Part shown: one piece after another, positions 1 to 32,371 of the stretch
How positions within the stretch are numbered: position 1 is the stretch's first letter
Layout: every line of letters starts with the position of its first letter
Source of the DNA: Candidatus Terraquivivens tengchongensis
Lineage (GTDB): Archaea > Thermoproteota > Nitrososphaeria_A > Caldarchaeales > Wolframiiraptoraceae
Direction of reading: 5' to 3'
Assembly (NCBI GenBank): GCA_023261845.1
Contig: JALNJZ010000004.1
Coordinates: 69,693-133,692 of the forward strand
Length of the DNA stretch: 64,000 nucleotides
The notes under the pieces: generated by a model
The model's database searches: none
What the model was told of the DNA's origin: nothing
What the model saw: only the letters and a program-made list of their open reading frames with translations
Translations under genes and position numbers: made by a program

Positions 1-799
1 ACTTAACCTTTGAAGGTTCAACGTAAATATTTCTAATTATATACATCGGTGGTTTCAACAATTCGTTTAATACGTAACCTAGAGCTACGGCCGGAATTAC
101 TGTAAGAAGTGTTTTTATTGCTCTTCGTCTTCCGATCCAAACAACCTTTTCTTCTTCGAACGTTTTTGGATGATGTTTTCTCAACCATTCGCTTAGCACT
201 TTGCCCGTCAGGAACATGGACTTTAATGCAGGCCACTGGTCGCGCAGGACTAAGTTCAGTATGAAATGAATTACTACAAAAACTGTAAGCAAGATGAAGA
301 ACGCTCTATGTAGAAGTCTTAAGACCTCATATTCAATGGGTAAGTAGTTCGTCCACATCATAATACCAGTTAATCCTAGGATAGGTAATGATATAGCGGC
401 GATCCAATAGAGTAGCTTTTCACCAGGCATGTGGAACCCAAGCTCAGGTTCGGGAGCCTTTAGGAACCTAAACTTGTAGTATGAGACAAGGTCCTTTAGG
501 TCCTTATAAGTAAACAGTATATTGCTCTTCTTGCTTCTGAGACCGAAGCTCAGCGTATGTACAACTATTGCAACCCCAATTAGTATAGTTACAACATATC
601 TATGGAGTAAACGACGGATAACCTCTCCGCCTATCACATCAGTAATCCAACGGAAGCTATCTCCAAGGTTATATCCAAGAATTTCGAGTTGGAGTTGCGG
701 AATACCGGACACCACTCCAATTACGACACCGAGCAATATTAGCAAATGCGTAAGCCTATCAAGAGGTGACCATCTTTCCACATATTCTGCCTCTTTCAT
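1..799 (-). CDS. b-type cytochrome membrane protein (Ni/Fe-hydrogenase / cytochrome b561-like), 3' end outside the window
   Basis: Manual minus-strand translation from ATG at 797-799 gives an uninterrupted reading frame that runs past position 1 (MKEAEYVERWSPLDRLTHLLILLGVV...HRYVVTILIGVAIVVHTLSF...HRAFFILLTVFVVIHF). It shows multiple TM helices with conserved His pairs typical of dihaem cytochrome b. It is absent from the ORF track because there is no stop codon inside the window. Confidence 0.5.
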   Translation of the reverse strand, partial: MKEAEYVERWSPLDRLTHLLILLGVVIGVVSGIPQLQLEILGYNLGDSFRWITDVIGGEVIRRLLHRYVVTILIGVAIVVHTLSFGLRSKKSNILFTYKDLKDLVSYYKFRFLKAPEPELGFHMPGEKLLYWIAAISLPILGLTGIMMWTNYLPIEYEVLRLLHRAFFILLTVFVVIHFILNLVLRDQWPALKSMFLTGKVLSEWLRKHHPKTFEEEKVVWIGRRRAIKTLLTVIPAVALGYVLNELLKPPMYIIRNIYVEPSKVK

Positions 800-921
800 T
801 TTAAATGTAAACCGACAACTTTGTTATATTAGTTTTTTATATATGTTTGCATAACATTTAAATATGAAGAGAACACGAAATTCCGAAATACATAAATAAT
901 TGTTACAAACTACATAATTTC

Positions 922-2469
922 GTGAGTGCAGAAAAGAAAGTATCTAGAAGAACTGTTGTAGGAACGATTGCTGCTGGCATTATCGGCTTAATCGTAGGAG
1001 GTGTCGCTGGAAGTCAGGCATTTCCGAGGGAGGTAACAAAAGAAGTAGAGAGAACAGTAACTATCACGAAGGTAGAGGAGGTAAAACCATGGTTGCCTGC
1101 GAAGTGGGACGAAGTTTACGAAATAGTTATTGTTGGTACAGGGTTCGCTGGCCTCTCTGCAGCTATAGAAGCATATGATGCTGGAATAAGGGACATAGTT
1201 ATCTTGGAAAAGATGCCATATGTTGGAGGAAACTCAATAATAAATGGAGGACAATTTGGGGTACTCAGTCCTGAAGAAGGGGATAGTGTCGATTTATTTG
1301 TCAAGGACATGCTAACTGCAGGACGATATCTGAACTATGTAGAGCTAGCTAGGAAAGTTGCGATAGAATCTCGTGATGTCTTTGAATGGCTAATAGGTCT
1401 CGGTGTTGAGTTCCCACCAGAACTAAAGATACAGGCTGGGGGGCATAGCGTAAGAAGGACCTATCAAACAAAGAACCTTTCTGGTAGAGACATAGTTGAG
1501 AAATTATTAGAAGCTGTGAAAAAAAGAGGTATTCCTATAAGAACAGAACATAAAGTAACTAGAATAATAAGGGAGGGGTTAAACACTGGAAAGGTTCTCG
1601 GAGTTGAGGTTGAAACTGGTAAAAATAAAATTTACATAAAATCTAGACGGGCTCTGATATTAGCAGGCGGAGGTTTTGGTCAAGATATCGAACTTAGAAA
1701 GTCTCAGTGGCCTGTACTCGATGAAACCATAAAATCCACTAATCATCCCGGAGCGACTGGAGAGTTGCTTCTTGCTGCAAAGAATATAGGTGCTACACTA
1801 ATTCAGATGGATCAGATTCAATTATATCCTTTTGCAGATCCTGAGACGGGCATACTTGATAGACAAGCAATTATTCCCTTCACTTCTCCAGCCTACGCGA
1901 TCTATGTCTGGAAGAATGGAAAAAGATTTGTTAACGAATTAGCACCCAGGGATGTTGTTGCAAATGTCCAGATTTTCGAATTAAAAGAAAAGCCCACTTG
2001 GACAATATTCGATGAAGCAATGTGGCCGAAGTTTACAACAAAAGAAGTAATTGAAGAGGGCATAGCGAGGGGTAGAATTATAGTAGGCAATACAATCGAA
2101 GAGTTAGCTGAAAAGGCGGGCATAGAGCCAGCAGGGCTTGCTGAAACCGTTAAAAGATATAACAGGTTCGTAGAAGGGGGGAAAGATGAGGACTTTGGAA
2201 AGCCAAGGTTATTAGCGAAGATTGAGAAGCCACCATTTTATGCAGTACCACAATGGCCTGCCGTACATCACACCATGGGCGGTATAAGAATCAATATTAA
2301 AGCACAAGTACTAGATAACGATGGTGTGCCCATACCGAAACTTTATGCCGCTGGAGAAATAACTGGCGGTATTCATGGAGCGAGTAGACTGGGTAGCCTC
2401 GCAATACCAGACTGTATAATATTCGGTAGGACAGCTGGAAAGGAAGCTACTAAGGAACCATTGGATTAA
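922..2469 (+). CDS. Tat-signal FAD-dependent oxidoreductase, soluble fumarate reductase / flavocytochrome c flavoprotein family
   Basis: N-terminus SRRTVVGTIAAGIIGLIVGGVAGSQA (twin-arginine motif, hydrophobic core, AxA-like cleavage site). GxGxxG dinucleotide fold (IVGTGFAGLSAA). C-terminal HHTMGGI motif characteristic of Fcc3-type fumarate reductases. GTG start. Confidence 0.7.
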   Translation: MSAEKKVSRRTVVGTIAAGIIGLIVGGVAGSQAFPREVTKEVERTVTITKVEEVKPWLPAKWDEVYEIVIVGTGFAGLSAAIEAYDAGIRDIVILEKMPYVGGNSIINGGQFGVLSPEEGDSVDLFVKDMLTAGRYLNYVELARKVAIESRDVFEWLIGLGVEFPPELKIQAGGHSVRRTYQTKNLSGRDIVEKLLEAVKKRGIPIRTEHKVTRIIREGLNTGKVLGVEVETGKNKIYIKSRRALILAGGGFGQDIELRKSQWPVLDETIKSTNHPGATGELLLAAKNIGATLIQMDQIQLYPFADPETGILDRQAIIPFTSPAYAIYVWKNGKRFVNELAPRDVVANVQIFELKEKPTWTIFDEAMWPKFTTKEVIEEGIARGRIIVGNTIEELAEKAGIEPAGLAETVKRYNRFVEGGKDEDFGKPRLLAKIEKPPFYAVPQWPAVHHTMGGIRINIKAQVLDNDGVPIPKLYAAGEITGGIHGASRLGSLAIPDCIIFGRTAGKEATKEPLD

Positions 2470-2510
2470 GAACACTATTTTTAAACCTCCCATAATTTTT
2501 TATTTTTTAA

Positions 2511-3449
2511 ATGACACCAGAAGAAAAATATCTTCTTGTAAAAAAGTCAAAAATTTTAATGGGAACCTCTGTTACGATTATGATCGTTTCTAAAAACGTA
2601 GAGCATTCTGAGGGAGTAATTGATAACGTATTCAACGAAATCAAGAGAGTTGAGGGTATAATGAGCGTATTTAACGAAGAGAGTGAGGTTAGCAGACTTA
2701 ACAGACAAGGCTATTTAGAGAATGCTTCCGAGGAACTGATATATATCATCAAAGAAGCAGAGAAGATAAGCATGTTAACGGATGGTGTCTTCGATATAAC
2801 GGTGGCTCCCTTAATAGAATATATTGATAAGAATTTTTTAAAAGATCGGACGTCATTTGAAGAGGGGCTAAGAAGCATATTTGAGCTCGTTGATTATTCG
2901 TCTGTAAAGGTAGAAGGGAGATGTATAAGGTTCTTGAAAAAAGGCATGAAGGTCGTTCTAAACGCTATAGCTAAAGGTTATGCGGCGGATTTGGCGGCAG
3001 AGACTTTAAAAAAGTACGGAATTAAGAACGCGCTGATCAATATAGGTGGAGATATCAGGGCTGTTGGTGGGAAGATAGACAAAGAACCTTGGAGAATTGG
3101 AATAAGGGATCCGTTTCATAAAGAACAGAATATAACGATCATAAAGCTTTACGACGGTGCTGTTGCGACCAGCGGGAGCTATGAACGCAGGATAGCACAA
3201 GGAATTTTAAGTCATATCATCAACCCAAAGAGGCTACTAACATCCGAGCAAGTCATCAGCTCTACTGTAATATGCGAGAGGGCACTCGTTGCTGATGCTC
3301 TTGCAACCAGCCTGTGCCTTATGGACCCAAAACAAGCCATCGGTCTCGTGGAAAAGTTAGACAATACAGAGGCTATGCTCATTCTGGCAGACAGTAAGAT
3401 TTTGAGGACGAGCAAGTTTGCGGCTTATGAGCTCAACAGGACGTTATAA
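2511..3449 (+). CDS. apbE: FAD:protein FMN transferase (ApbE family)
   Basis: LNAIAKGYAADLAAE...NIGGDIRAVG matches the ApbE family signature. 312 aa. Confidence 0.75.
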   Translation: MTPEEKYLLVKKSKILMGTSVTIMIVSKNVEHSEGVIDNVFNEIKRVEGIMSVFNEESEVSRLNRQGYLENASEELIYIIKEAEKISMLTDGVFDITVAPLIEYIDKNFLKDRTSFEEGLRSIFELVDYSSVKVEGRCIRFLKKGMKVVLNAIAKGYAADLAAETLKKYGIKNALINIGGDIRAVGGKIDKEPWRIGIRDPFHKEQNITIIKLYDGAVATSGSYERRIAQGILSHIINPKRLLTSEQVISSTVICERALVADALATSLCLMDPKQAIGLVEKLDNTEAMLILADSKILRTSKFAAYELNRTL

Positions 3450-3550
3450 CAAGAAAACGTAAAGATGCCCTTCTACGTTCATCGAAATAACGAGGCTTAC
3501 TAGAATTCATGTTTATATATTTGTGCCTTTTTCTGAACCCGTAAAGTAAT

Positions 3551-5356
3551 ATGCGGCTGGAAGCAAAGGCTTCTACATTAATCCCGAGCATTGAGGAGAT
3601 GACGATAGGGGGCTTTAAGGAGTCATTTAGGAAGATCTTAGAGCTTAAGCGGAGATGTGGGATAGAGCCAGTACTCGATAATCCGCCAGATCTACTAGAG
3701 CGCGCCAAGCTCTATGCGACAAAATACAGGAATGGATCCCTCGGTTGGGCCTCAAATATTTGGCATAGATCCGAGGCTGGCTCAGCCGTTATCATGAAAG
3801 ACGATGATCTTAGAGGAGAGCATAAGTTACTTATGCGAAGGGTTCTCGAACATATTCTCGCCCAGGGACCCCTGATCAAAGTGGACGGAATTCTAGGAAA
3901 GCCTGGTAGCAGGGTTGAGATGAGATGTAGGCTTTATTGCGATCCACAGTTTCCGGACATAGCATACAGGTGGAGCCAACTTGCGTTTCCAGGAGATCCG
4001 ACAAAGGACCCGGATGTTGAACTGATAAACATACCTCATTATCTTGGAAACCCGGTGAATCCAGAGACTGGGCGAATGCTCATGGTTCTTAGATTCCCGA
4101 ATCATGACTTCACGATAGTTACCTGCTCATCCTATCAGGGCGAGGTAAAAAAAGGGTTTCTAAGCCACTGGATAATTCATGTCTATAAAAAAGGCGGGAC
4201 AGGAGAACATGCAGCTTTCAGGGAGTTCACGGTGAAAAGAAAGGATGGTAACGAAAAAAGGATAATCTTATGCATCTGGGGGCTCACAGGCTCGGGAAAA
4301 TCGACCCACGGATTCTACGTCTGGGATAAGTCAAACATCAATACATACATTGAAAAGTTCGGGATAAATCCGCTCGACTATGTTAAGGATCAGGAAATTA
4401 AGAACGACGACATAATAGCTATCTTTGAGGATCGAGTAATCGGATCAGAGCGGGGATCGTGGACGAAGACCGAGGATGTTGATCCAAGGCAGGTGGCGAT
4501 CTGGAGAGCTGCTGTGTCGCCCAGAGCGCTTCATGAGAACACAGAATTCGATGAGAATGGTAATCCATCGCTTAGTGGGGAGCTTTACCAATATTATGGT
4601 ATGTTCAATAAAAATGCTAGATCCGTCTTCTTCCTTGAGGATACTGGTTACTTTAGGGGCGATGTTGAGTCAAGTGGGCCGATGAACACAGCAATCTTCA
4701 TTTCCCCTGGATACTTCACTGACTACGCATGGGTTAAAATCACAGATCCGGCTTTCGCTGCAAAAGTCCTAGCTGATGGAAGAACCATAGGACATCCAGC
4801 CCAATCAAGGGATGCCTATGGAGTAATCTTCTCTACGAGGTACTGCAAACCATTCACAATGGGGGTTCCATCCACAAACCACGTAGTTAGGTTTTACGAG
4901 ATGCTAAAGAAGAGAATGGAGCGAGGAGACCCGGTAGAAGTTTATCAGTTCAATACTACAGGCAGGATAATCGCAAAGTATCAGTGGACAAGGATCAAGC
5001 TTGGCGATGAGGAGCTTGAAGTACCTCAGCCAGTATTCAAGTTAGCTCCAGATGGCACGATGAAACCTGTTGGTGGGACATCCCCGACGATAGAAGAGAC
5101 AGAGCTCTTCATACTCCAAGCATCCCGCGGCGCTGTCGAGTACGAGCCCCACCCAGTTTGGGGTGAGAAAGTTCTAATACCAGTAGAGGTCGAGGGGCTA
5201 TCCGAGAAGAGGCTTAAGGAGCTTCAACCAACAACATATCTCTCTCTGAGTGAGTTCAAGAGATTGCTAGAAGCTCAAGTGAAGCTAAGCAAACATTATC
5301 TTGATAAGGACTGTCCGGACCTTCCACCGGAGATATACAACGCAATGGACTTTTAA
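3551..5356 (+). CDS. pckA: phosphoenolpyruvate carboxykinase (ATP) family protein
   Basis: Kinase-1a motif region YQGEVKKGFLSHW...ILCIWGLTGSGKSTHG aligns with E. coli PckA (YGGEMKKGMFS...VFFGLSGTGKTTLS). 601 aa. Confidence 0.55.
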   Translation: MRLEAKASTLIPSIEEMTIGGFKESFRKILELKRRCGIEPVLDNPPDLLERAKLYATKYRNGSLGWASNIWHRSEAGSAVIMKDDDLRGEHKLLMRRVLEHILAQGPLIKVDGILGKPGSRVEMRCRLYCDPQFPDIAYRWSQLAFPGDPTKDPDVELINIPHYLGNPVNPETGRMLMVLRFPNHDFTIVTCSSYQGEVKKGFLSHWIIHVYKKGGTGEHAAFREFTVKRKDGNEKRIILCIWGLTGSGKSTHGFYVWDKSNINTYIEKFGINPLDYVKDQEIKNDDIIAIFEDRVIGSERGSWTKTEDVDPRQVAIWRAAVSPRALHENTEFDENGNPSLSGELYQYYGMFNKNARSVFFLEDTGYFRGDVESSGPMNTAIFISPGYFTDYAWVKITDPAFAAKVLADGRTIGHPAQSRDAYGVIFSTRYCKPFTMGVPSTNHVVRFYEMLKKRMERGDPVEVYQFNTTGRIIAKYQWTRIKLGDEELEVPQPVFKLAPDGTMKPVGGTSPTIEETELFILQASRGAVEYEPHPVWGEKVLIPVEVEGLSEKRLKELQPTTYLSLSEFKRLLEAQVKLSKHYLDKDCPDLPPEIYNAMDF

Positions 5357-5399
5357 AACATTCCAAAAGCTTTTTATATTTTAACGCTAAAGTATAAGC

Positions 5400-6917
5400 A
5401 TGTCAAATTCCGAGAAAAAGGTTACTAGAAGACAAGTACTAGCAGCAATATCTTCCGGCATAGCTGGACTAGTGGTCGGAGGCATCGTAGGAAGTCAGGC
5501 TTTTCCGAAGGCGGAGAAGGTAACAGAGACGGTTACAACAACTACGACGACTACGCAGACTACTATCGTTAAACCTCCAGAGCCTCCGTTCGAGGAGCAT
5601 GAGATAGTCATCGTCGGCGCTGGGATGGCTGGTCTTACCGCGGCTATAGCCGCTTACGAGGCTGGTGTCAAAGATGTAGTTGTATTGGAAAAAGGCCCGA
5701 GTGTTTATAGTTGTAACAGCTCCGTCAGCGGAGGTGCATTCTACATCTCTACACCAGAATTCCCACCATCAGAGTACGTTAAGGCCGTTATGAGAATCAC
5801 ATACAATAAAGCATTTCCGGAATTAATAGAGGTTCTCGCCGAAAAATCTTACGAGACTGTCTTAGAGTGGTTACCTAAGGTAGCCGGCGTAAAATTCCTT
5901 CCAAAAGAGAAGTGGTTGGCACCGAACGCTCCAGGTGTAGAAGGAGGCGGGCCCAAGTTGATGGAATACATGGTCAACGCAGTAAAGGCTAGAAATATTC
6001 CGATAATATTAGAAACCAAAGCCGTGTCACTACTTGTCAGCATCAAGGGAGAAGTTCTGGGCGTAAGGGCTCTTACCAAAGATGGTTACAAAGACTTTAA
6101 GGCGAAGGCGACGATACTTGCATGCGGAGGGTTCCAAGCAAACCAAGAGATGGTCGTGAACTATATATCGCCTAAAGTTGCTTACAACTCAATTCTCAGA
6201 GGTCTTCCAAACAACACGGGCGATGGGCATAGAATGGTTTCTGAGGTTAGGGCGAAACAGATATTCATGGACCAATACCACGGGGCGACAGTTCAACCGG
6301 AGACATACGCCAACCCAGGAGGTTTCTTCCCGCAAGGCATAATCGTAAACAAGCACGGTAAAAGGTTTATCGATGAGGGTGTCGCAACGTATGTCGAGGC
6401 TGGAAAAGCAGCCCTCGATCAGCCCGATGGGCTGGCTTACATAATACTAGACGCCGAGGGGTTCAAGAGAGTTAGCCCATGGTGGAGAGACTACTTCTTG
6501 GTGCAGTACAAAGGGAGGCTAACGGAGGCAAACAGCATAGAAGAGTTGGCGAATATATTTGGTATAAATGTCGAAGGTCTCAAAAAGACCATCGAGGATT
6601 TCAATAATGCCGTCAGGGATGGATACACAGAGGGCATAACACCTCCGAAGAGTAAGAACGCGTACAGAATAGAGACTCCACCATTCTATGGCATAAATTA
6701 TGTCTGCGGAATAACGTTAACGTTTGGAGGGCCGTTAACGGATAAATACGCTCGTGTTCTGGACCTAGAGGGCACACCCATACCGAGGCTTTACGCGATT
6801 GGTGAGTTGACTGGAGGGTTCTTCTTCGAAAACTATCCTGGTGGTGGAAGCTTAGCTAGATGTGCCGTTTTCGGGAAGATAGCCGGAGAGCATGCTGCTT
6901 CCATTGTCAAAGGCTAA
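5400..6917 (+). CDS. Tat-signal FAD-dependent oxidoreductase, divergent paralog of 922..2469 with a poly-Thr linker
   Basis: N-terminus TRRQVLAAISSGIAGLVVGGIVGSQA. Linker TETVTTTTTTTQTTIV. GAGMAGLTAA Rossmann motif. Lacks the HxTMGG motif. Confidence 0.65.
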   Translation: MSNSEKKVTRRQVLAAISSGIAGLVVGGIVGSQAFPKAEKVTETVTTTTTTTQTTIVKPPEPPFEEHEIVIVGAGMAGLTAAIAAYEAGVKDVVVLEKGPSVYSCNSSVSGGAFYISTPEFPPSEYVKAVMRITYNKAFPELIEVLAEKSYETVLEWLPKVAGVKFLPKEKWLAPNAPGVEGGGPKLMEYMVNAVKARNIPIILETKAVSLLVSIKGEVLGVRALTKDGYKDFKAKATILACGGFQANQEMVVNYISPKVAYNSILRGLPNNTGDGHRMVSEVRAKQIFMDQYHGATVQPETYANPGGFFPQGIIVNKHGKRFIDEGVATYVEAGKAALDQPDGLAYIILDAEGFKRVSPWWRDYFLVQYKGRLTEANSIEELANIFGINVEGLKKTIEDFNNAVRDGYTEGITPPKSKNAYRIETPPFYGINYVCGITLTFGGPLTDKYARVLDLEGTPIPRLYAIGELTGGFFFENYPGGGSLARCAVFGKIAGEHAASIVKG

Positions 6918-6944: not shown

Positions 6945-8396
6945 TTAAGCACAATGCTGAGTTAGATTTTCTCCTTCCAGTATAGAGCCAACCACCTCGT
7001 TAAATTTACTGCTCAACTCTATTATTTGCGACTCATTTAGGTACTCGGTATCGTATCCCAACCTCGACGGAGGCACAGTACCTTCCGCGAAGCACTTGTA
7101 CATCTTATAGAAGTCGCTAAAGCTTCTGAACTTCAATCTTATACCATACTTCTTCGGTAGAAGGAATCTAGGTGAGCATGGTTCTAGAAAGAGCGGATTG
7201 CATGATATAGCAACAACATTATTGTACGTTCGGAGTATCCTTTCGCCGAGCTTCATAGTCTTATTAAACTCCTCAACAGTCTCGCCGCTTAATCCCGATG
7301 CGAAGTACAACTCGGCAGGAACCATCCCTTCCTCTAGCATCTCGAGCCATCTTAGGAGAGATTGGTTATCATAATAGAAGCCCTTGTTCTTAAGCCTAAC
7401 AAAGTCTGAGCCAGTCTCTGGTGAAATCGTGAGCGTCGTGTAAAGCGGATTAAATGTCTTCTTTAAATCTTGAACGAAGTTCCTATCGGTTAGAGACCAT
7501 ATGAGGAACTGGGAGCTTATATCTATCCCCTCTTTCCTCACGAGTTCAAAAAGCTTATAGTAGAACTTTCTATTAGTGTATGGGTCAAAATCCATGTAGG
7601 CACAGGAAATGCCAAGTTCCTCGAATGCCCTAAGGTCCTCGGCAACTTTCTCTGGTGACCTAAAAATCGGCTGTTGTCTTCCGAATATCTTCCTATGAGC
7701 TAAGTTTGCACCGCCGCAGTAGGAGCAATTTACGGAGCAACCGCGTCCGATCATCAACCAGCCTTGGGTCTTCAGCTTCGGCGAGAGAACATCGTTCTCG
7801 TGTATAAGCCTGACATAAAGGTCCCAGTCTTCCAAAAGTTTTAAGTCAGAGCATGTCAGCTTATCCAAGTCCTCACTGCTTGCTAAGTATGCTCTTCTAC
7901 TCCTCTTTACTGCAGAACCTTTTCTGTACACTAAGTTCGGCACATCGCTCACTTCCGTACTTTTCATTAACGCCTTTATCAATTCAATCATAGGAAGTTC
8001 CGCATCACCGACTATTACGTAATCTACACAATCAAATGAGCTTAGTATCTCATCTGCAAAAAAGGAGGCTGTCATCCCACCTAACACGACTTTGGCATTT
8101 GTACATCGCTTTACACAATCCGCCAGCTTAATTGCATCATAAGAGTGGCAGTACCAATGAAGATCTATCCCAACTAGTGTGGGCTCGAGCGCTTTTATAA
8201 GATTCTCGACTTTATAGTTTGGATCAAGCATTCGCTTAAGCCCTACGTGAACTATCCTCGTAGAGTAACCATTCCTTTCTAGCAGGTCTGCTAACGCAAA
8301 CGTTCCCATGGGCACGGCTACGTACCTTACCACTTCACCATCAGATGTTGACACATACGTGGACGGATGAAGGAAGAGCACATCAACATCGCCCAA
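6945..8396 (-). CDS. B12-binding domain radical SAM protein
   Basis: CSVNCSYCGG (CxxxCxxC) preceded by a cobalamin-binding-like N-terminal domain. 483 aa. Confidence 0.7.
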   Translation of the reverse strand: MGDVDVLFLHPSTYVSTSDGEVVRYVAVPMGTFALADLLERNGYSTRIVHVGLKRMLDPNYKVENLIKALEPTLVGIDLHWYCHSYDAIKLADCVKRCTNAKVVLGGMTASFFADEILSSFDCVDYVIVGDAELPMIELIKALMKSTEVSDVPNLVYRKGSAVKRSRRAYLASSEDLDKLTCSDLKLLEDWDLYVRLIHENDVLSPKLKTQGWLMIGRGCSVNCSYCGGANLAHRKIFGRQQPIFRSPEKVAEDLRAFEELGISCAYMDFDPYTNRKFYYKLFELVRKEGIDISSQFLIWSLTDRNFVQDLKKTFNPLYTTLTISPETGSDFVRLKNKGFYYDNQSLLRWLEMLEEGMVPAELYFASGLSGETVEEFNKTMKLGERILRTYNNVVAISCNPLFLEPCSPRFLLPKKYGIRLKFRSFSDFYKMYKCFAEGTVPPSRLGYDTEYLNESQIIELSSKFNEVVGSILEGENLTQHCA

Positions 8397-9413
8397 TTAG
8401 ACCAGCTCCTTGCTCAAGATTGTCGTATAACATGCGGGCCTGAACCCTACCCCTGATAGTGCACGCTTAACTTCTTCCAAACGGTCTTCTACACCTGCTA
8501 TCTCCGTCCTCTTGAAACCTTTTAGAGTCTCTGAATGTATAAGTTTCTTCAAGGATGCCAATAGGGTGTCTATATCTTTTGCGAGCCACATAACTACCTT
8601 CAAGTTGCTGAAAGGGTACTTTCCAAGAGTCTTTTGGTATAGTTGTGGTATAGGTGTCCTATACTTTTTAGCAAACTCAAGCAAATCTGGCCGTAGTATG
8701 AAAGCCGCCTCAGTTAGACCGTCTCTAGAGGCGAATTTAGCGATTTGAGGGGTGCCAAATGGTTTCAGACCGTGCTCAAGTGTCGGTAAAGTCCAAGATC
8801 TGTAAGAGAACAAGTTCTCATAGATGAACATTCTGCTGACACTTTCGGGGCTTACGTCTTGTAAACAAACTGTTTGTTCATCGTCATCTAAAGGAGCAAT
8901 ACCATAAGTCCAAACTTTTACATATTCTTTGTATCCCATAGACCTTAGTTGTTCGACAAATACGTCATGATTGCAGGATATGCTACTGAGGTCGTAGGAT
9001 ATGCAAGTATATGACGTAGGGTAAGAAACGTATTCATCCAACACTTGATGTAACTCTATATCAACACCATTTAAGCAAGCTTCCTTTGCAAAATCCTCGA
9101 TATTTTCTATAAAGAACTCGAATCCTTCACGGATGTCATCAACAAAGGTTATGGGTTGTGTTACGAAGAACCTCTTTCCGTTTATACTTTGATAAATGAA
9201 GCAGAAAGAAAACAAAACCTCCTCATGTTGTTCTTGCGTCTTATCCAATCGAACAAGAGTTAAAGGATAAAATCTCCAAACCCACTTACCGAGGTGCATT
9301 AAGCCACTCGGTATGAAGCCTGTATGAAAGTATCTTAATCCTATACCTGAATATACTAAGGACACCTTAGAAAAAAGTCTCGGCGGCATTCTAGCTTCTA
9401 TCTTGAATTCCAT
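8397..9413 (-). CDS. hypothetical protein, translationally coupled to the radical SAM gene
   Basis: 338-aa ORF whose stop abuts the radical SAM start (8397/8396). No recognisable motif. Confidence 0.4.
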   Translation of the reverse strand: MEFKIEARMPPRLFSKVSLVYSGIGLRYFHTGFIPSGLMHLGKWVWRFYPLTLVRLDKTQEQHEEVLFSFCFIYQSINGKRFFVTQPITFVDDIREGFEFFIENIEDFAKEACLNGVDIELHQVLDEYVSYPTSYTCISYDLSSISCNHDVFVEQLRSMGYKEYVKVWTYGIAPLDDDEQTVCLQDVSPESVSRMFIYENLFSYRSWTLPTLEHGLKPFGTPQIAKFASRDGLTEAAFILRPDLLEFAKKYRTPIPQLYQKTLGKYPFSNLKVVMWLAKDIDTLLASLKKLIHSETLKGFKRTEIAGVEDRLEEVKRALSGVGFRPACYTTILSKELV

Positions 9414-9467
9414 TCTATATAACGAAGCACTTTTTAGGATATAAAGCCAACCCGGTCCTACAACCTC

Positions 9468-9989
9468 TCAACTTATTTTTATGATATGCTTTGCGGCTAT
9501 CTCGGCGGCCTTTGCCATCACATCGGCGCACTTGTTCATCGCTCCAGATTCGGCAAAGACCTTCAAATCCTCGGAATTTCTTAGGTCATAGACTCTGCCG
9601 AAAAGCCTCAGATGTATATCTTTACACCTGACACTTCCATACGTTTGCTTAAACTCGTCGTATATCTTAATCGCCAAGTCCATGCATTTTGAGTAATCCT
9701 CCGACTCACTTGTCCTTTCTAACCTTCTCCTACCATGAAGCATGCCAACGAACATCAGGGCTCCGAGTAATGCACCACATGCTTCTCCGCTTCTTGCCAC
9801 ACCACCGGCGAGTGAGGTTGCTGCCATGAAGACGTTTTGGTCTACTACACCAAACGTTTCTTGAAGGGCCTTCAGGGTCATCTGTGAACATCCGCTAAAC
9901 TCTTCGCCAAGTATCTTGGCAAGCTTTGCGGCCCTGTTAACCAGCTTGTCAGCTTTCTGACACATGAGGACATTAACATGAACGAACAA
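9468..9989 (-). CDS. C_GCAxxG_C_C family putative redox protein
   Basis: ATSLAGGVARSGEACGALLGALMFVGM fits the family core motif. 173 aa. Confidence 0.45.
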   Translation of the reverse strand: MFVHVNVLMCQKADKLVNRAAKLAKILGEEFSGCSQMTLKALQETFGVVDQNVFMAATSLAGGVARSGEACGALLGALMFVGMLHGRRRLERTSESEDYSKCMDLAIKIYDEFKQTYGSVRCKDIHLRLFGRVYDLRNSEDLKVFAESGAMNKCADVMAKAAEIAAKHIIKIS

Positions 9990-22043: not shown

Positions 22044-22628
22044 GTGTTGAACCCGAGGTACTGGGCTTTTGCGATCATCATGGGAGCCTTAGGAAACGCT
22101 TTGGCGGCCCTGACGGTCATCCCGACGATGGTTCAGCAAGTCGCGCTTGACTTCTCCCTACTTCCAGCCATCATAGCGGGTATATATGGAGGCTGGGCAC
22201 TAGGCGGCCTGACGGGTTTCATAGCAGGAATACTTCCCTCGATATGGTTCGGACCTCTTGGGAATCTTGGTCCTTTGGGCATCACAGCGAGCATCGGGAA
22301 GGCCATCATGGGAATCACAGTAGGCCTGCTTTCGAGGGCCTTTAGGAGGTGGCTCGAGGCCAGGACTTGGCTCTACATCCCGGTCGTTGCTTTGGCCTTC
22401 TTACCCGAGGCTTTATGGATATATCTCGTGTTCGCAGTAATGGTACCGCTCTTTTTACCAGCAGCACCAGCCTTTCTGCCAGGTCTATGGGCTCCAATAC
22501 TTCTGAAGGGATCTTTCGAGATAGCAGTCATGGGATTCTTCACCGCAGCACTCGCAGGTCATAACGGCTTCAAGAGTCAAATACTCTCTTTCCTGAACTC
22601 TACGGCGTTGCCCATTAGAAAAACCTAG
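22044..22628 (+). CDS. integral membrane protein, ECF-transporter S-component-like
   Basis: About 5-6 TM helices. The Gly/Ala-rich helices resemble BioY/ECF S components. Confidence 0.35.
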   Translation: MLNPRYWAFAIIMGALGNALAALTVIPTMVQQVALDFSLLPAIIAGIYGGWALGGLTGFIAGILPSIWFGPLGNLGPLGITASIGKAIMGITVGLLSRAFRRWLEARTWLYIPVVALAFLPEALWIYLVFAVMVPLFLPAAPAFLPGLWAPILLKGSFEIAVMGFFTAALAGHNGFKSQILSFLNSTALPIRKT

Positions 22629-22696
22629 CAATACTACTAATTTTTTACTCAAAAATTGGTAGAAACTAAAGTTTAAGTAAATGCTTTAATGATCTA

Positions 22697-23389
22697 TTGG
22701 GTAGTATGGAGCGCAAGGAACGTTCAAAGAGCCTGTTGGTCGCAGTCGCGGCGGTGTTCGGAGGCCTCTCCTCGGTCATTGCCATGCTCAAACTCAGCTT
22801 CCCATTCCCATTATTACCGTACCTTAAGTTTGACTTGGCGGAGCTTCCTGCTATCTTTTCATTCCTAGCCTTTGGACCTTTCTTAGGCCTCGTGACGTCG
22901 CTAGTGTACTGGATAGTCTTAACGATTGCTACCATGGGAGAGTGGCTTTGGCCAATAGGTCCGTTCATGAAGTTCTTGGCAGTTATATCTACACTTGTAG
23001 GTGTCTGGCTAGGCTCTAGGATATTCGTGAAATCCGAGAGGCACCCCCTCGGCTCGCTCCTGTTACGTATGGGCGTGCTGGCCGCCATACTCAGGACAGC
23101 AGCCATGGGTGTGATGAACTACCTAATCTTAGTAATAATGGTACCTGAGTCGCTCACCTTCGTTAACTACTTGCTCTCGACGACTCTAGGCCTGAATTTA
23201 GGCTCCGAGTTAGAGCTAATTTTACTCGTCATGGCCCTTACGTCAGTCTTCAACATAATCCATACAATCCTCTCTCTGGTGCCGCCGGTTATTGTCGTTC
23301 AAAGGATAGAAAGAGCGGGCGCTTTTATGAGGATGGTCGGCAACTCTTGGATTGGCAACCTCGTGAAAAGGGTATACGATTCTAAATAA
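22697..23389 (+). CDS. integral membrane protein, paralogous to 22044..22628
   Basis: Similar length and topology (FDLAELPAIFSFLAFGP). Confidence 0.35.
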   Translation: MGSMERKERSKSLLVAVAAVFGGLSSVIAMLKLSFPFPLLPYLKFDLAELPAIFSFLAFGPFLGLVTSLVYWIVLTIATMGEWLWPIGPFMKFLAVISTLVGVWLGSRIFVKSERHPLGSLLLRMGVLAAILRTAAMGVMNYLILVIMVPESLTFVNYLLSTTLGLNLGSELELILLVMALTSVFNIIHTILSLVPPVIVVQRIERAGAFMRMVGNSWIGNLVKRVYDSK

Positions 23390-25276: not shown

Positions 25277-27196
25277 CTACGTTAGGCCTATCTTCTTCGC
25301 GTATTCTGTTAACCCCAACTCAGCGAGCTTCTCTAGCTTAGGTTTGCCTTCCTTTGTCCATCCCCTTATGCTGTAAAATTCATCCAACATTTGATCGAAT
25401 TTTCCCCTATCTACGACCTCACCCTTTGACGCACCGAAGGCTAGCGGATCTTTGTACATTCTCTCTGGGAGATAATCGTCCTTCCTTGTCAAACCTTCTC
25501 TGATGTTGTAGAGCCTGATAATGTTGTTAATTCTTTCTCCTATCCTCCTAAGCTCTGCCGCGTTTATACCCGCTCCGGTAGCCATGTTGTAGATGGTCGT
25601 CACACCCTCCCATAACATCGGGCCGATTGTCGGTAAGGAGTAAAACTTACACATTATCATGCTATCGATGACTGCGTAAAAGTCCTCCTGCTCTGCGACG
25701 TACTCGGCATGACCGTCGTAGGACAACCTGTCAACTGTAACATCTGGTTTGAACGGATGCTTCCCTGTCAGGTTCGGCCTGTAGGCCACGTGCCTTAGAT
25801 GGCACGCACCCCTTTGTGAGACGGCATAAGCAAGGGCGACACCCTTCAAACCTCTTGGATCGTATCCCGGGAACTCCAACCCTTTCACATGGACAGCCAG
25901 TTCAGGAACGCCTAAAATTTCTGCGGCACGTCTTACACCCTCAGCAAGTATCTTTCCAAGACCTCTCTTGAACGCTATAACCTCAACCGCCCTAACGAGC
26001 GAGTCACCGTCACCGAACTTCAAGCCTATGTCGTTCTCTTTTAGAAGACCCCGTTCAGCTAAGTACATAGCGAAACTCACAACGTTCCCGAGTGTTATCG
26101 TGTCAAGTCCATACAGGTTTGCAAGCTCGTTGGCCGCTGCAACCGCAGCTAAGTCGTCGATTCCACATAACGGGCTTAGCGCGTATAGGGTTTCGTACTC
26201 GGGCCCTTCCAAGACTATAGTTTTCCCTTTATAATCAACAACACTATGCCTACCACAAGCTACTGGGCATGCAAAGCAAGTTATGTGCTTCTTCACTATA
26301 GTACTGTTCATAGTCTCTGGTCCGACTTTTTCATAACCATCAAAACTTCCGCCTTGATAGTATCTGGTCGATAAGGAACCCGTGTTTTGTGTAAAGGCCA
26401 TTATGCCCGATGTGCCGTATTTTGCGAGCGCAGTTAATGTGTTTCTTGCTTTGTTCGATACTTCCCTCCTTAACTCTTCGTACGCCTTCTCATCAGCTGG
26501 AGCGACCTCAAGTGTACCTTTTATTACGATGGCCTTCAGCTTCTTGCTTCCCATGACAGCACCGCCTCCAGTCCTACCGAAGAAACCACCTCTCAAGCCC
26601 TTAACGCTGTGCTGGTATATGCCGTGGACTATACATGCAAACTTGACCAAATTCTCGCCTGCTTGACCTATGACGGCTGTCTGGACTTTATCGCCGTGTT
26701 CCTTCCAAAGAGCCTTCTCGGCTTCTAATGTGTTCAGACCCCAAATGCCAGATGCATCACGTATTTGGACTTCGCCGTCCTCAACATAAAGATAGACTGG
26801 CTTGCTCGACGCACCTTTTACCACGATAGCGTCAAGCCCAGCTTTAGCCATCTCGGTGCCGATGTAACCGCCACAGTAACTCTCGCCGAATAAGTTAGTG
26901 AGCGGCGACTTAAAGCACAACGTCATCCTAGCGGCGCTCGAGAGGGCAAGACCCTCTATCGGTCCAACAGAGAAGACAAGAACGTTGTCTGGTGAAAGCG
27001 GATCTATCTTAGGTTCCGTGTTGTCGAATAAGAGCTTCGCACCTAAACCCTTTCCACCTATGAAATTTCTATAGACATCCTTACCAGGGTCGAAATATTT
27101 CACGGAACCATCAGATAAATCAACAAAGCACACCCTATGCCAATATCCTGATTCTCTAATACTAGGTTTCATCACAAATACCAGCAAAACAGACAT
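25277..27196 (-). CDS. aor: tungsten-containing aldehyde:ferredoxin oxidoreductase (AOR family)
   Basis: AOR N-terminal and catalytic domains over the full length (...VDLSDGSVKY...GKGLGAKLL...). About 630 aa. Confidence 0.9.
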   Translation of the reverse strand: MSVLLVFVMKPSIRESGYWHRVCFVDLSDGSVKYFDPGKDVYRNFIGGKGLGAKLLFDNTEPKIDPLSPDNVLVFSVGPIEGLALSSAARMTLCFKSPLTNLFGESYCGGYIGTEMAKAGLDAIVVKGASSKPVYLYVEDGEVQIRDASGIWGLNTLEAEKALWKEHGDKVQTAVIGQAGENLVKFACIVHGIYQHSVKGLRGGFFGRTGGGAVMGSKKLKAIVIKGTLEVAPADEKAYEELRREVSNKARNTLTALAKYGTSGIMAFTQNTGSLSTRYYQGGSFDGYEKVGPETMNSTIVKKHITCFACPVACGRHSVVDYKGKTIVLEGPEYETLYALSPLCGIDDLAAVAAANELANLYGLDTITLGNVVSFAMYLAERGLLKENDIGLKFGDGDSLVRAVEVIAFKRGLGKILAEGVRRAAEILGVPELAVHVKGLEFPGYDPRGLKGVALAYAVSQRGACHLRHVAYRPNLTGKHPFKPDVTVDRLSYDGHAEYVAEQEDFYAVIDSMIMCKFYSLPTIGPMLWEGVTTIYNMATGAGINAAELRRIGERINNIIRLYNIREGLTRKDDYLPERMYKDPLAFGASKGEVVDRGKFDQMLDEFYSIRGWTKEGKPKLEKLAELGLTEYAKKIGLT

Positions 27197-31399: not shown

Positions 31400-31579
31400 A
31401 CAACCCAAGGTCAGGGTTAGCGTACTCTTACCGTAGCCAGTCGGAAGTAAAAAAATACAAAACGTTGGTAAATTATTATGTAAAAATTCATCAACTACCT
31501 TTAGGGGCTTATGTATGAGTGTTCTTGCCCGCCAAGAAAGAGCGCCACATATGTTCAAGTACAACTCATGTAATGTCAC
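31400..31579 (-). pseudogene. cas3: cas3' (helicase) N-terminal fragment, truncated
   Basis: Minus ORF beginning at 31579 and overlapping the cas5 stop: ...HKPLKVVDEFLHNNLPTFCIFLLPTGYGKSTLTL. This carries helicase motif I. The frame then runs antisense into the ferritin-like gene. Confidence 0.55.
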
Positions 31580-32366
31580 GTGAGATCACCATAACGTTTT
31601 CACCATCGGTGTATGCCAGACCCTTACTTGACAGTCTGAGTTCAATGACATCGCTTTCGATAAAACCACGTACTTTCCCTGGAATTATATAACGGACTGG
31701 TTTTGGTTTCTTAGCGCCGAATTCATCATCCCAAAACTCTACCTCATCGTAGTTATGGTTCTCAATCGATTCTTTAGCTTCTGAAGGAAAGTAATACGAA
31801 GTTTTGACAACGTCCTGTTTAACAAGCCATGAATCGTTAAGCTTAACATCCTCGACACTTACTATGCTCTCCTTTGAACCTATCCGAGTGATGCTCCAAG
31901 CACTACGAATTAAAGATTGTTTCCAGCCATCGCCTAAAATCGACTTTACCTTGTCTTCGTCTATCAAGTAAAGCGCATGAAACGCTCTATGAGGCGCAAG
32001 CACTTTTCCAGACGGAATTGCGCCAAACCTATACTCCATCAACGCTCTTCTTGCAGGTTTTTGGAAGTGAAGCACGATGTAACGATTGATATCCAGCCAT
32101 TCGCTAGCGACTTCATTGTGTTCATATTCGAATCTACATGAAGCAGCCTTTATGAAATTCATCAAAAATGCTGAGGATGTTAGATTGAGTTTTCTCCTCT
32201 TCATGGACGTGTATATTGTTTCGGAGTTATCCATGAGTCCCTTTAAAAGAGCTCCTTTGAGTGTATTAGGAGGTGGTAGCGCAAACGCTGGTTGACCCTT
32301 GCTAGAAAACGGATGTTTAACAGAGTAGCCCCAATGAAACCTCGCTCGTATATGAAGAAGCATCAT
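31566..32366 (-). CDS. cas5: CRISPR-associated Cas5 (subtype I-A)
   Basis: N-terminus LHIRARFHWGYSVKHPFSS...ALPPPNTLKGALLKGL carries the Cas5 PPPST-type motif. Confidence 0.75.
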   Translation of the reverse strand: MMLLHIRARFHWGYSVKHPFSSKGQPAFALPPPNTLKGALLKGLMDNSETIYTSMKRRKLNLTSSAFLMNFIKAASCRFEYEHNEVASEWLDINRYIVLHFQKPARRALMEYRFGAIPSGKVLAPHRAFHALYLIDEDKVKSILGDGWKQSLIRSAWSITRIGSKESIVSVEDVKLNDSWLVKQDVVKTSYYFPSEAKESIENHNYDEVEFWDDEFGAKKPKPVRYIIPGKVRGFIESDVIELRLSSKGLAYTDGENVMVISRDIT

Positions 32367-32371
32367 CTTCT

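Follow-up and report, generated by a model that had tools for sequence, protein, structure and literature searches.

We hold with moderate confidence that the locus at the left edge of the analysed window, i.e., a 64,000-nucleotide stretch of DNA from the hot-spring archaeon Candidatus Terraquivivens tengchongensis (Caldarchaeales, formerly Aigarchaeota), codes for a module for flavin-based electron transfer at the membrane's outer face. If this is true, the flavinylated domain of one membrane-bound "socket" relays electrons to interchangeable, outward-facing flavoenzymes.

Organization and Conservation of the Locus

An ORF check of the window confirmed five genes, and the RR-containing N-termini, the HHTMGG motif and the poly-Thr stretch described earlier from the letters alone (the sequence-only reading) are all present. 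The features are as follows:

1..799, minus strand: cytochrome b-CARDB-FMN_bind fusion gene, first 266 of 482 codons in the window (Ni_hydr_CYTB, E=6e-16)
59..130, minus strand: codons of the RR224-225 motif and TM5 of the fusion, proposed internal Tat signal-anchor
800..921, unstranded: AT-rich divergent intergenic region between the fusion gene and flavoprotein 1
922..2469, plus strand: flavoprotein 1, 515 aa (FAD_binding_2, E=1.6e-64)
943-960, plus strand: RR motif SRRTVV of flavoprotein 1, residues 8-13
1168..2495, plus strand: strain-polymorphic cassette over the flavoprotein 1 catalytic domain (comparison with locus L015)
2511..3449, plus strand: ApbE-family FAD:protein FMN transferase, 312 aa (Pfam ApbE, E=1e-72)
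3551..5356, plus strand: divergent archaeal ATP-type PEP carboxykinase (PEPCK), 601 aa (Pfam PEPCK_ATP, 46 bits)
5400..6917, plus strand: flavoprotein 2, 505 aa (FAD_binding_2, E=1e-43)
5424-5441, plus strand: RR motif TRRQVL of flavoprotein 2, residues 9-14
5535-5564, plus strand: poly-Thr linker TTTTTTTQTT of flavoprotein 2, at residue 46

The proposal of an extracytoplasmic, ApbE-serviced flavoprotein module with a membrane cytochrome b, made in the sequence-only reading, is supported, and its gene set recurs in relatives. In L014-L017 the cytochrome b-FMN_bind fusion is accompanied by a leaderless ApbE and by one or two FAD_binding_2 proteins with an RR anchor, and the divergent arrangement of the fusion gene and flavoprotein 1 is also kept; the set of cytochrome b, ApbE and RR-anchored flavoproteins is present in Ca. 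Geocrenenecus dongiae, Ca. G. huangii and Aigarchaeota SKYB24. No flavoprotein was seen near the fusion locus in L096, so that the socket may serve other partners.

The Cytochrome b Fusion as Probable Target of ApbE

The left edge of the window cuts the cytochrome b gene, the remainder of which lies in the parent contig; the rest of the CARDB domain and the FMN_bind domain with its flavinylation site are found outside the window, at L009:8430-9079. In profile searches the complete 482-aa protein is matched by Ni_hydr_CYTB, CARDB and FMN_bind, while the DUF4405 match is weak and sub-threshold. The fusion starts with a four-TM dihaem cytochrome b, followed by a cytoplasmic loop, the RR224-225 motif, TM5, CARDB and FMN_bind. 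Its haem ligand pairs are His18/His178 and His66/His164; in the homologue alignment His18 is at least 90% conserved, and the other three do not vary. The best Foldseek match of the AF2 model (pLDDT 78.6) is E. coli FdnI (1kqf_C, TMt 0.74, 24% identity), that shares the four TM helices, and further matches are CARDB 3idu and RnfG 7zc6_G. The ligands of FdnI, which we take to be His155 and His169, have the same spacing of 14 as His164/His178 of the fusion. FdnI has no fifth helix, CARDB or FMN_bind, and receives its electrons from an FeS subunit rather than from a flavin.

The flavinylation site of the fusion, D457-A-I-S-G-A-T463, belongs to the family consensus DA[IV][ST]GAT, and D457, A458, G461, A462, T463, S465 and S466 are invariant among 16 aligned homologues. 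No ORF of the window contains the D-x-x-[ST]-G-A-[ST] motif. In the sequence-only reading the ApbE target was not evident. As judged from sequence, this target is the FMN_bind domain of the fusion; it seemed to be missing because the window edge hid that domain.

Bacteria are known to have flavinylated FMN_bind domains that feed fumarate-reductase-like enzymes, and also b-cytochromes linked to flavinylation (PMC8238504, PMC11334425). As in FrdA of Listeria monocytogenes and UrdA of Shewanella oneidensis, where FMN attached by ApbE to FMN_bind passes electrons to the PF00890 FAD outside the cytoplasm (PMC8238504), both cofactor domains are present here. However, in the archaeal host FMN_bind is carried by the cytochrome b and would act in trans and serve several reductases, ApbE is leaderless and the UrdA-specific Asp388 is absent. 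The fusion also resembles MsrQ-like, PepSY-like and DUF4405 cytochromes (Meheust 2021, PMC8238504; mSystems 2024, PMC11334425). These are dihaem TM proteins whose genes neighbour those for ApbE and a protein that carries FMN, and their proposed role is electron transport within or across the membrane to the flavinylated domain (PMC8238504, PMC11334425). Unlike the six-TM MsrQ and DUF4405 proteins, the fusion is of the four-TM FdnI/PF01292 type and is fused to FMN_bind through an additional, RR-preceded helix.

Flavoproteins of the Module

Profile searches found FAD_binding_2 in both flavoproteins and FMN_bind in neither, and together with motif searches they revealed neither D-x-x-[ST]-G-A-[ST] nor CxxCH in the two proteins. 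Flavoprotein 1 is composed of an RR motif, a TM anchor ending with GSQAFPRE, a T/E/K/V-rich linker and a FAD_binding_2 catalytic domain of the flavocytochrome-c/UrdA type, matched by TIGR01813 (flavocytochrome c) at 426 bits with a cutoff of 285. UrdA is its best match among solved structures (266 bits), and Mrd, the methacrylate reductase of Geobacter sulfurreducens AM-1, is 47% identical to it. HHTMGG stands at residue 449, both catalytic arginines are present and Fcc3 R402, H504 and R545 are conserved in the alignment. Flavoprotein 2 has the same layout, with the same type of anchor (GSQAFPK) and the poly-Thr linker. Its best NCBIfam match is TcuA (270 bits, below the cutoff of 369), and 3-ketosteroid dehydrogenases are among its relatives.

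The flavoprotein pair had been described as fumarate-reductase-like. HHTMGG is not specific, since it is common to urocanate reductase, and the fumarate-specific residues of Fcc3 are replaced in flavoprotein 1 (H365->Y, T377->R, E378->Q, R381->I). In flavoprotein 2 both catalytic arginines are lacking and the positions of R402, H504 and R545 hold Y, L/T and Y. On these alignments the label of fumarate reductase is not supported for either protein. The urocanate-specific residues are likewise absent from flavoprotein 1. An alpha,beta-unsaturated carboxylate is the likeliest acceptor for this protein. Flavoprotein 1 resembles periplasmic enoate reductases linked to cytochrome c, namely Mrd (whose partner cytochrome is Mcc) and Fcc3; both Mrd and flavoprotein 1 combine a signal with a FAD domain in about 500-525 aa and have no haem or FMN domain of their own. 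Nevertheless, in contrast to Shewanella Fcc3 and Mrd, there is no cytochrome c partner here and no CxxCH, and the relay would be the flavinylated domain on the cytochrome b.

The partner flavoproteins of related loci have the GSQAFP[RK]E anchor and conserved T-rich linkers in common, yet they are only 31-51% identical. In the near-identical genome of L015 the cassette slot of flavoprotein 1 is occupied by a 46%-identical paralogue, with flanks that are 96.2% and 99.8% identical. Common anchors and linkers at low identity, together with this strain-specific swap, indicate that the flavoproteins are modular.

Flavinylation and Membrane Targeting

In both flavoproteins the RR motif is followed by a hydrophobic helix, but the TIGR01409 Tat-signal scores of 13.0 and 15.9 bits do not reach the cutoff of 16.7, so that Tat targeting is no more than suggested. 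The TM5 segment of the fusion has no TIGR01409 match. R224-R225 is invariant in 16 homologues (R224-R225-[RK]-x-[ILF]-[KR]), and TM5 is the least hydrophobic helix of the fusion and is followed by K/R, the traits that Tooke et al. 2017 (PMC5449189) used as criteria. Stand-alone homologues open with SRRSFL, SRRGFL, SRRNFLKG or TRRNFI, and the one in L019 passes TIGR01409 at 22.1 bits. In L095 an RR-CARDB-FMN_bind gene follows genes for a Tat-signal FeS protein and a DmsC-like anchor. Neither tatA nor tatC was found in the window, to which that search was confined.

ApbE matches 266 of the 266 Pfam profile positions and carries no signal peptide: the stretch before the conserved MGT domain start is just 16 residues long, and no upstream ORF extension is possible. 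The six related Aigarchaeota/Thaumarchaeota loci all have a leaderless ApbE (maximal ORFs leave 10-26 residues before MGT); being phylogenetically related, these loci do not count as independent observations. Every other complete ApbE ORF among 63 surveyed loci has a hydrophobic or RR-bearing N-terminal extension, and Rnf-linked ApbEs of methanogens bear RR signals. The leaderless enzyme and the conserved RR before the FMN_bind anchor suggest that FMN is attached in the cytoplasm before Tat exports the domain by means of an internal signal-anchor. No description of such a route was found in the literature searched. The survey that defined flavinylation systems dropped genes without a predicted signal peptide (PMC8238504), which places leaderless systems outside its scope.

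A comparable architecture is known from polytopic proteins targeted by both Sec and Tat, above all from Streptomyces Sco3746, a haem b membrane domain with RR-TMD5 and a MoCo domain, and from the actinobacterial Rieske protein (Tooke 2017, PMC5449189). These have five TMDs with RR immediately before the last one, which is of low hydrophobicity and is followed by positive charges and a cofactor-bearing globular domain outside; in split versions the soluble partner carries the Tat signal at its N-terminus. They differ in the cytochrome family and in the cargo cofactor, which here would be covalent FMN installed by ApbE rather than MoCo or FeS. ApbE of Klebsiella pneumoniae, that serves a cytoplasmic fumarate reductase, is also leaderless (PMC12052999), but its flavinylated target stays in the cytoplasm, while the archaeal target would be exported. 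An ApbE-Tat link is known from NosX (PMC7660919); in NosX and in the methanogen ApbEs the transferase is exported, whereas here it would stay inside and its target would leave.

Alternatively, TM5 could be a plain Sec-inserted helix with arginines that serve as positive-inside residues, and FMN_bind could be flavinylated outside the cell, by ApbE that arrives by another route, e.g., by hitch-hiking on one of the RR flavoproteins encoded on both sides of it, or by a different, exported ApbE. The missing TIGR01409 match of TM5 and the sub-threshold flavoprotein signals favour this explanation, as do characterised ApbEs for secreted targets, which are extracytosolic, signal-bearing and membrane-anchored (PMC12052999), and the known Tat hitch-hiking by signal-less partners (10.1101/2023.11.02.564894). 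We regard it as unlikely, because the RR itself is invariant, beyond mere positive charge, free-standing homologues have consensus N-terminal Tat motifs and the fusion gene of L096 has tatA immediately upstream. Moreover, leaderless ApbE and RR-anchored FMN_bind occur together in six of six loci, whereas elsewhere signal-bearing ApbE accompanies non-RR RnfG anchors, and extracytosolic flavinylation would also need FAD export, for which no gene was seen beside the module.

Proposed Mechanism and Direction of Electron Flow

In the model that we consider probable as a whole, cytoplasmic flavinylation and Tat assembly included, the socket would be a single polypeptide consisting of the FdnI-type dihaem cytochrome b, presumably with the quinol/quinone site in its four helices, the fifth helix, a CARDB spacer and the RnfG-like FMN_bind. 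Helices 1-4 would be inserted by Sec/YidC; the C-terminal domain would be folded in the cytoplasm, receive FMN on Thr463 from ApbE and be moved across by Tat in the folded state, with helix 5 as internal signal-anchor. The same Tat route would be used by the FAD-loaded flavoproteins, the "plugs", i.e., FAD_binding_2 flavoenzymes, each tethered by its N-terminal helix with RR and its Thr-rich linker; strains and species differ in the plugs that they carry. Electrons would then pass from quinol to haem b on the cytoplasmic side, haem b on the outer side, covalent FMN, FAD and an organic acceptor. Next in the parent contig, about 250 bp past the far end of the fusion gene, stands a gene for cytochrome bd subunit I, consistent with a quinol pool.

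The same hardware might also work in reverse: as dehydrogenases, the outward-facing flavoproteins would oxidise an external organic substrate, and electrons would pass from FAD through FMN and the haems b to quinone at the cytoplasmic face. The result would be a redox loop of the FdnI kind generating proton-motive force, in which cytochrome bd is the terminal oxidase. This is conceivable, although we doubt it. FdnI, the closest structure, works in that direction, the cytochrome bd gene is adjacent and flavoprotein 2 is nearest to TcuA, a dehydrogenase, with 3-ketosteroid dehydrogenases as further relatives. PF01292 cytochromes, however, also occur in quinol-oxidising systems, e.g., PhsC. Flavoprotein 1 passes the flavocytochrome-c model, its two arginines and HHTMGG are typical of respiratory enoate reductases, and most characterised signal-peptide-bearing members of the superfamily are respiratory reductases (bioRxiv 10.1101/2022.12.26.521950), which speaks against the reverse flow.

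Against the preferred model, FdnI-type cytochromes b usually send electrons inward to quinone, and CARDB sits between TM5 and FMN_bind, which bears on the distance from FMN to the outer haem.

PEP Carboxykinase

The 601-aa protein proved to have the ATP-type PEPCK fold. Pfam PEPCK_ATP matches it above the cutoff of 26.5 bits, while it reaches 125 bits with the NCBIfam subfamily model, whose cutoff is 369; the best Foldseek matches of the AF2 model (pLDDT 85.5, pTM 0.88) are ATP-PEPCKs (TMt 0.77-0.79, 15-18% identity), and YQGExKK, GxGKST, DD and R357 are invariant in the family alignment.

The sequence-only reading had placed pckA in a branch from PEP through oxaloacetate and fumarate to succinate; in such a model both flavoproteins would be fumarate reductases. 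The adjacent position of these genes on the same strand with gaps of 41-101 nt, the intact PEPCK fold and catalytic motifs, and HHTMGG with both catalytic arginines in flavoprotein 1 speak for this idea, which we nevertheless find highly improbable. A separate TATA-like box precedes each gene, the fumarate-specific residues are replaced or missing as described above, and the C4 acids made by PEPCK are cytoplasmic, where fumarate would be out of reach of exported, outward-facing reductases. The position of PEPCK is not conserved either: the family is a widespread stand-alone archaeal gene without a conserved neighbourhood, even a 91%-identical homologue lies among different genes, and L016 and L017 have the module without PEPCK. 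It is probably an unrelated housekeeping bystander and not a part of the module.

Gene content of the cluster

All five genes named for this cluster by the sequence-only reading were recovered by ORF listing and profile searches, which confirms the observation; its interpretation is supported in part. A protein identical to flavoprotein 1 is encoded by 11 contigs assigned to 'Nitrososphaerota archaeon' MAGs.

Genes of the cluster (window coordinates, strand, assignment)
799 down to 1, off the window edge, minus strand: cytochrome b561/FdnI-like protein, 266 aa visible; Ni_hydr_CYTB, E=6e-16
922-2469, plus strand: flavoprotein 1, 515 aa; FAD_binding_2, E=1.6e-64; TIGR01813, 426 bits (cutoff 285)
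2511-3449, plus strand: ApbE (FAD:protein FMN transferase), 312 aa; Pfam ApbE, E=1e-72
3551-5356, plus strand: PEPCK-like protein (pckA), 601 aa; PEPCK_ATP, 46 bits (cutoff 26.5)
5400-6917, plus strand: flavoprotein 2, 505 aa; FAD_binding_2, E=1e-43; best NCBIfam match TcuA, 270 bits (cutoff 369)

The nearest relatives of the locus that carry a name come from Ca. Geocrenenecus dongiae and Ca. G. huangii, which belong to the Wolframiiraptoraceae, Caldarchaeales (PMC9246946). Boxes resembling TTTATATA or TTTTATAT are located approximately 25-40 nt 5' of the start codons of apbE, pckA and the flavoprotein 2 gene (in the intervals 2470-2510, 3450-3550 and 5357-5399), which suggests that these three genes may be expressed as separate leaderless transcripts and not as one operon. 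Three minus-strand genes lie directly downstream of the cluster (6945-9989) and encode a B12-binding radical SAM protein of 483 aa, a protein of 338 aa without Pfam match and a C_GCAxxG_C_C redox protein; this trio is kept in same-species contigs and is missing from the module in Aigarchaeota SKYB24 (L016) and Ca. G. huangii (L017).

A cytochrome b-CARDB-FMN_bind fusion as the predicted target of ApbE

On the parent contig, which reaches past the left edge of the window (L009), the cytochrome b gene has 482 codons and encodes a fusion of Ni_hydr_CYTB, CARDB and FMN_bind domains. The window contains only codons 1-266, so that the flavinylation site falls outside it. The FMN_bind domain (PF04205) covers residues 406-478 (36 bits, cutoff 22) and the C-terminus, ...GKVDAISGATISS..., has DAISGAT at residues 457-463, a canonical motif of ApbE targets (D-[AG]-x-[ST]-G-A-[ST]), with D457, A458, G461, A462, T463, S465 and S466 invariant among 16 homologues. 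The domain bearing Thr463 is thus the predicted target of ApbE. The sequence-only reading had described the target as not evident, since neither flavoprotein has an FMN-binding domain or a flavinylation motif. For the flavoproteins this holds, as profile searches found FAD_binding_2 in both and FMN_bind in neither; the target itself was missed because the window edge cuts the fusion gene after codon 266. It was also considered that the Thr-rich linkers of the flavoproteins are cryptic flavinylation sites, and this was rejected, as the motif search found D-x-x-[ST]-G-A-[ST] in no ORF of the 64 kb and the canonical target is present in the fusion.

The AlphaFold2 model of the fusion (pLDDT 78.6) is composed of four transmembrane helices, a fifth helix, a β-sandwich and an α/β domain, for which Foldseek returned FdnI (1kqf_C, TMt 0.74), a CARDB domain (3idu) and RnfG (7zc6_G). 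The match to PF01292 (57-59 bits, cutoff 30.1) goes together with the four helices and the FdnI-like fold, and the NCBIfam FdnI equivalog scores 70 bits, below its cutoff of 116. Of the candidate haem-ligand residues, His66, His164 and His178 do not vary in the homologue alignment and His18 is kept in at least 90% of the sequences, a pattern that, with the 14-residue spacing of His164 and His178, we take to correspond to the FdnI haem ligands His18, His57, His155 and His169. If so, the N-terminus and the loop that follows TM4 would be cytoplasmic and everything after TM5 would be outside. Electrons may run through the module in either direction: FdnI moves electrons inward to quinone, and a gene for a cytochrome bd subunit is a neighbour of the fusion gene.

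The fusion architecture is rare and lineage-restricted. The word-indexed search of 5.8 billion proteins gave about 17 full-length homologues, the named ones all archaeal, while HMMER against 1.84 billion cluster representatives gave just one other full-length representative, the remaining matches being single-domain; the fusion is carried by 4 of 185,579 species genomes. Approximately 250 bp past the 3' end of the fusion gene, left of the window and convergent with it, there is a homologue of cytochrome bd oxidase subunit I of only 370 aa (L009:7067-8179), which hints at a quinol pool and perhaps at a link to oxygen.

ApbE without a signal and the proposed site of flavinylation

The ApbE of the window is complete by profile (PF02424, 245 bits, 266/266 profile positions) and its translation contains AKG, GGD, TSG, H-I-I-N-P and DALAT, the signature motifs of the family. 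The ORF cannot be extended upstream, which leaves only 16 residues ahead of the conserved MGT at which the domain starts; in this N-terminus no hydrophobic segment, no match to Tat or signal profiles and no lipoprotein or secretion signal was found. The same holds for related loci, as only 10-26 residues precede MGT in ApbE of Ca. G. dongiae (L014), a genome near-identical to that of the window (L015), L016, L017 and two further loci with RR-anchored FMN_bind proteins (L019, L096). Among 63 fetched loci encoding both ApbE and an FMN_bind homologue, only these six, which are related to one another, have a complete ApbE ORF that lacks an N-terminal extension with a hydrophobic segment or RR, and in all six the FMN_bind anchor comes after RR. 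The remaining loci are mostly Rnf operons, in which a signal-bearing ApbE is combined with a non-RR anchor of RnfG. In Methanosarcinales and Methanocellales (L020-L026) ApbE follows rnfCDGEAB and has its own RR signal (MINRRHFIKG..., pattern NRRxFIKG; Pfam TAT_signal, 22.7 bits). Thus, in methanogen Rnf loci the transferase itself is RR-signalled, whereas the Aigarchaeota loci have the opposite arrangement.

ApbE enzymes without a leader are known only where the target is cytoplasmic (PMC12052999), and the ApbE that bears a Tat signal, NosX, is an exported transferase (PMC7660919). Neither a flavinylated target exported by Tat nor flavinylation in the cytoplasm followed by Tat export was described in the literature searched, an absence that is not a proof. 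The simplest reading of RR anchors found together with a leaderless ApbE is that flavinylation would take place in the cytoplasm and would be followed by export through Tat.

Twin-arginine anchors and proposed dual Sec/Tat targeting

In the fusion family R224-R225 are invariant and lie directly before the final transmembrane domain, in the pattern [STG]-R-R-[RK]-x-[ILF]-[KR]. A rough Hessa sum that disregards position gives 4.8 for TM5 of the query and values from -2.4 to 2.1 for TM1-4; TM5 is the least hydrophobic helix in most, not every, homologue, and a Lys or Arg is located within 10 residues after TM5 in 16 of 16 sequences. Features of this kind, i.e., twin arginines, low hydrophobicity and positive charge, pass a final helix from Sec to Tat (Tooke et al., 2017, PMC5449189), and the closest precedent for the fusion is Sco3746, in which a haem b membrane domain is followed by an RR-bearing TMD5 and a MoCo domain (PMC5449189).

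Free-standing proteins of the RR-TM-(CARDB)-FMN_bind type start with SRRSFL, SRRGFL, SRRNFLKG or TRRNFI, and their gene neighbourhoods are informative. In L019 such a gene is directly followed by a leaderless ApbE, and in L095, another RR-FMN_bind locus, the RR-CARDB-FMN_bind gene stands in one row (L095:1553-4046) behind the genes for a 4Fe-4S protein with a Tat signal and for a DmsC-like anchor. In L096 (L096:7375-10485) a canonical tatA (...LFLWGPKKLGEFAKSIG...) is located immediately upstream of the fusion gene and a leaderless ApbE downstream of it, with no flavoprotein seen near the fusion gene. The Tat profile TIGR01409 (cutoff 16.7 bits) gave 13.0 and 15.9 bits for flavoproteins 1 and 2 and 13.5-22.1 bits for the stand-alone homologues, of which only the L019 protein passes (22.1); the TM5 segment of the fusion matches neither TIGR01409 nor PF10518. 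Neither tatA nor tatC was found among the ORFs of the window. Two adjacent ORFs with 4-6 TM helices (22044-23389) encode ECF-type S-component-like membrane proteins.

Both flavoproteins start with an [ST]RR motif (SRRTVV and TRRQVL) followed by a hydrophobic helix and, since their FAD cofactor is non-covalent, we infer that they would be exported folded via the Tat route. For the module as a whole we propose tentatively, at slightly below an even chance, that ApbE stays inside and would attach FMN to the C-terminal domain of the fusion in the cytoplasm, that Tat would then carry the folded, covalently flavinylated holo-domain out through the internal twin-arginine signal-anchor of TM5, and that the exported domain would be a socket serving a strain-variable set of plug-in flavoenzymes.

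Identity of the flavoproteins

The twin-arginine N-termini, the HHTMGG motif and the poly-Thr stretch are all found in the ORF translations where the sequence-only reading had placed them; its fumarate reading is not borne out by the active-site residues. Flavoprotein 1 is a member of TIGR01813 by score and flavoprotein 2 is not (192 bits). The best alignments of flavoprotein 1 are to UrdA and Fcc3; it shows 47% identity to the Geobacter methacrylate reductase Mrd and keeps the equivalents of Fcc3 R402, H504 and R545, among them both arginines by which the classical active site for enoate reduction is defined (10.1101/2022.12.26.521950). The fumarate-specific residues are all replaced (H365 by Tyr, as in UrdA, T377 by Arg, E378 by Gln and R381 by Ile). 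UrdA combines an N-terminal FMN_bind domain with the substrate determinants Tyr373 and Asp388, whereas flavoprotein 1 keeps the Tyr373 equivalent, has Phe at the position of Asp388 and lacks FMN_bind in cis. In flavoprotein 2 R402 is replaced by Tyr, H504 by Leu/Thr and R545 by Tyr; it lacks both catalytic arginines, as do the four flavoproteins of L016 and L017, and the Tyr at R545 in all of these proteins resembles the Tyr-type clades described in a preprint (10.1101/2022.12.26.521950). Because of these replaced active-site residues, the label 'fumarate reductase' does not appear justified for either flavoprotein. None of the eight archaeal flavoproteins compared has a CxxCH motif or an N-terminal multihaem cytochrome c domain.

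Beyond its own small archaeal group, the nearest relatives of flavoprotein 1 are bacterial (52-59% identity among the full-length matches), and this, together with a G+C content of 0.40 in nt 922-3449 against 0.46-0.48, hints that flavoprotein 1 may have been acquired from bacteria. Its closest bacterial homologue (Syntrophales P0133) is encoded by a stand-alone gene.

A conserved module with exchangeable catalytic domains

In L016 and L017 two RR-anchored flavoproteins (586-596 aa) are encoded divergently from the fusion gene, ApbE is located after the fusion gene and convergent with it, and no PEPCK was found by tblastn and ORF maps. All eight archaeal flavoproteins have in common the anchor ...RR...G(L/I)xxGGxxGSQ(A/V)FP(R/K)(E/A) and a T/E/K-rich linker, and show only 31-51% identity between types. 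The two flanks of nt 1168-2495 are shared by L015 and the window at 96.2% and 99.8% identity, and inside this interval L015 carries (L015:6178-7782) a 46%-identical catalytic domain on the same anchor. The catalytic domain of flavoprotein 1 is therefore a strain-level polymorphism. Ca. G. dongiae (L014:1343-3687) has the L015-type paralogue and decayed fragments of flavoprotein 1. It is likely that a tandem flavoprotein pair was resolved by recombination between identical anchor-coding sequences, which fits a common socket with exchangeable plugs.

The PEPCK gene as a probable bystander

Since a PDB sequence search with the 601-aa protein gave no matching chain, folds were compared. The AF2 model (pLDDT 85.5) matches the ATP-PEPCK structures of T. 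thermophilus and E. coli (TMt 0.71-0.79 at 15-18% identity), and 34 homologues keep the catalytic motifs without change (YQGExKK, the P-loop GxxGxGKS/T, catalytic Asp and Arg); the NCBIfam PEPCK subfamily model scores 125 bits, below its cutoff of 369. The protein is thus a predicted PEPCK-fold enzyme, as had been proposed. Homologues listed from Bathyarchaeia, Korarchaeota, Aigarchaeota, Thermoprotei and Asgard MAGs show 64-91% identity, and in seven loci of the L001-L008 set of PEPCK loci, including that of the 91%-identical homologue, the neighbours are unrelated (Alba, Trm112, a presenilin-like peptidase etc.). That the protein serves the module as a specific kinase or chaperone was rejected in view of its highly conserved stand-alone family, its intact motifs and fold and these unrelated neighbours. 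The place of pckA in a PEP-to-succinate branch, argued for from the sequence alone, is not borne out: given the unconserved neighbourhood, the absence from the L016 and L017 modules and the gene's own upstream box, pckA is best regarded as a probable bystander that landed inside the cluster in this species group.

Electron flow and implications

In bacteria, flavinylated relays to PF00890 enzymes are established, and so are flavinylation-linked b-cytochromes of the MsrQ-like, PepSY-like and DUF4405 types (PMC8238504, PMC11334425). The survey that described most of them, mainly in bacteria, removed genes without a predicted signal peptide and found just 4% of archaeal genomes to encode extracytosolic components for flavinylation (PMC8238504); the locus described here points to an archaeal counterpart that would escape such a filter. 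If the proposal is true, the fusion would add a new family to the few membrane proteins that depend on both Sec and Tat for integration; no earlier one has a covalent flavin or comes from the Aigarchaeota/Thaumarchaeota group. Its assembly would also be an inside-out alternative to the bacterial route of FAD export and external ApbE. Loading inside followed by Tat export would remove the need for FAD export and, if confirmed, would add a new cofactor class of Tat cargo. Hot-spring archaea would gain a flexible respiration with organic acceptors (or donors), and the uncultivated Ca. Geocrenenecus (Wolframiiraptoraceae) a quinone-linked respiratory module, the exchangeable terminal enzymes of which could indicate which electron acceptors to offer when cultivation is attempted. 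For annotation, 'fumarate reductase' and the link to pckA would both be over-annotations.

Other features of the window

A methyl-corrinoid methyltransferase set is present in this non-methanogen (52561-57973), as are type I-A CRISPR-Cas genes (31566-37445).

Methyltransferase and CRISPR-Cas genes (window coordinates, strand, assignment)
52561-54372, minus strand: RACo activator
54513-55214, plus strand: B12-binding corrinoid protein
55231-56613, plus strand: MtmB-like protein, full-length, no in-frame stop, 280 bits
56591-57973, plus strand: MtaB, 553 bits
32372-33481, minus strand: Csa2/DevR
33447-33827, minus strand: Csa5
35919-37445, plus strand: Csx1 CARF protein

At 25277-27196 an aldehyde:ferredoxin oxidoreductase is encoded, a member of a tungstoenzyme family, which fits the Wolframiiraptoraceae.
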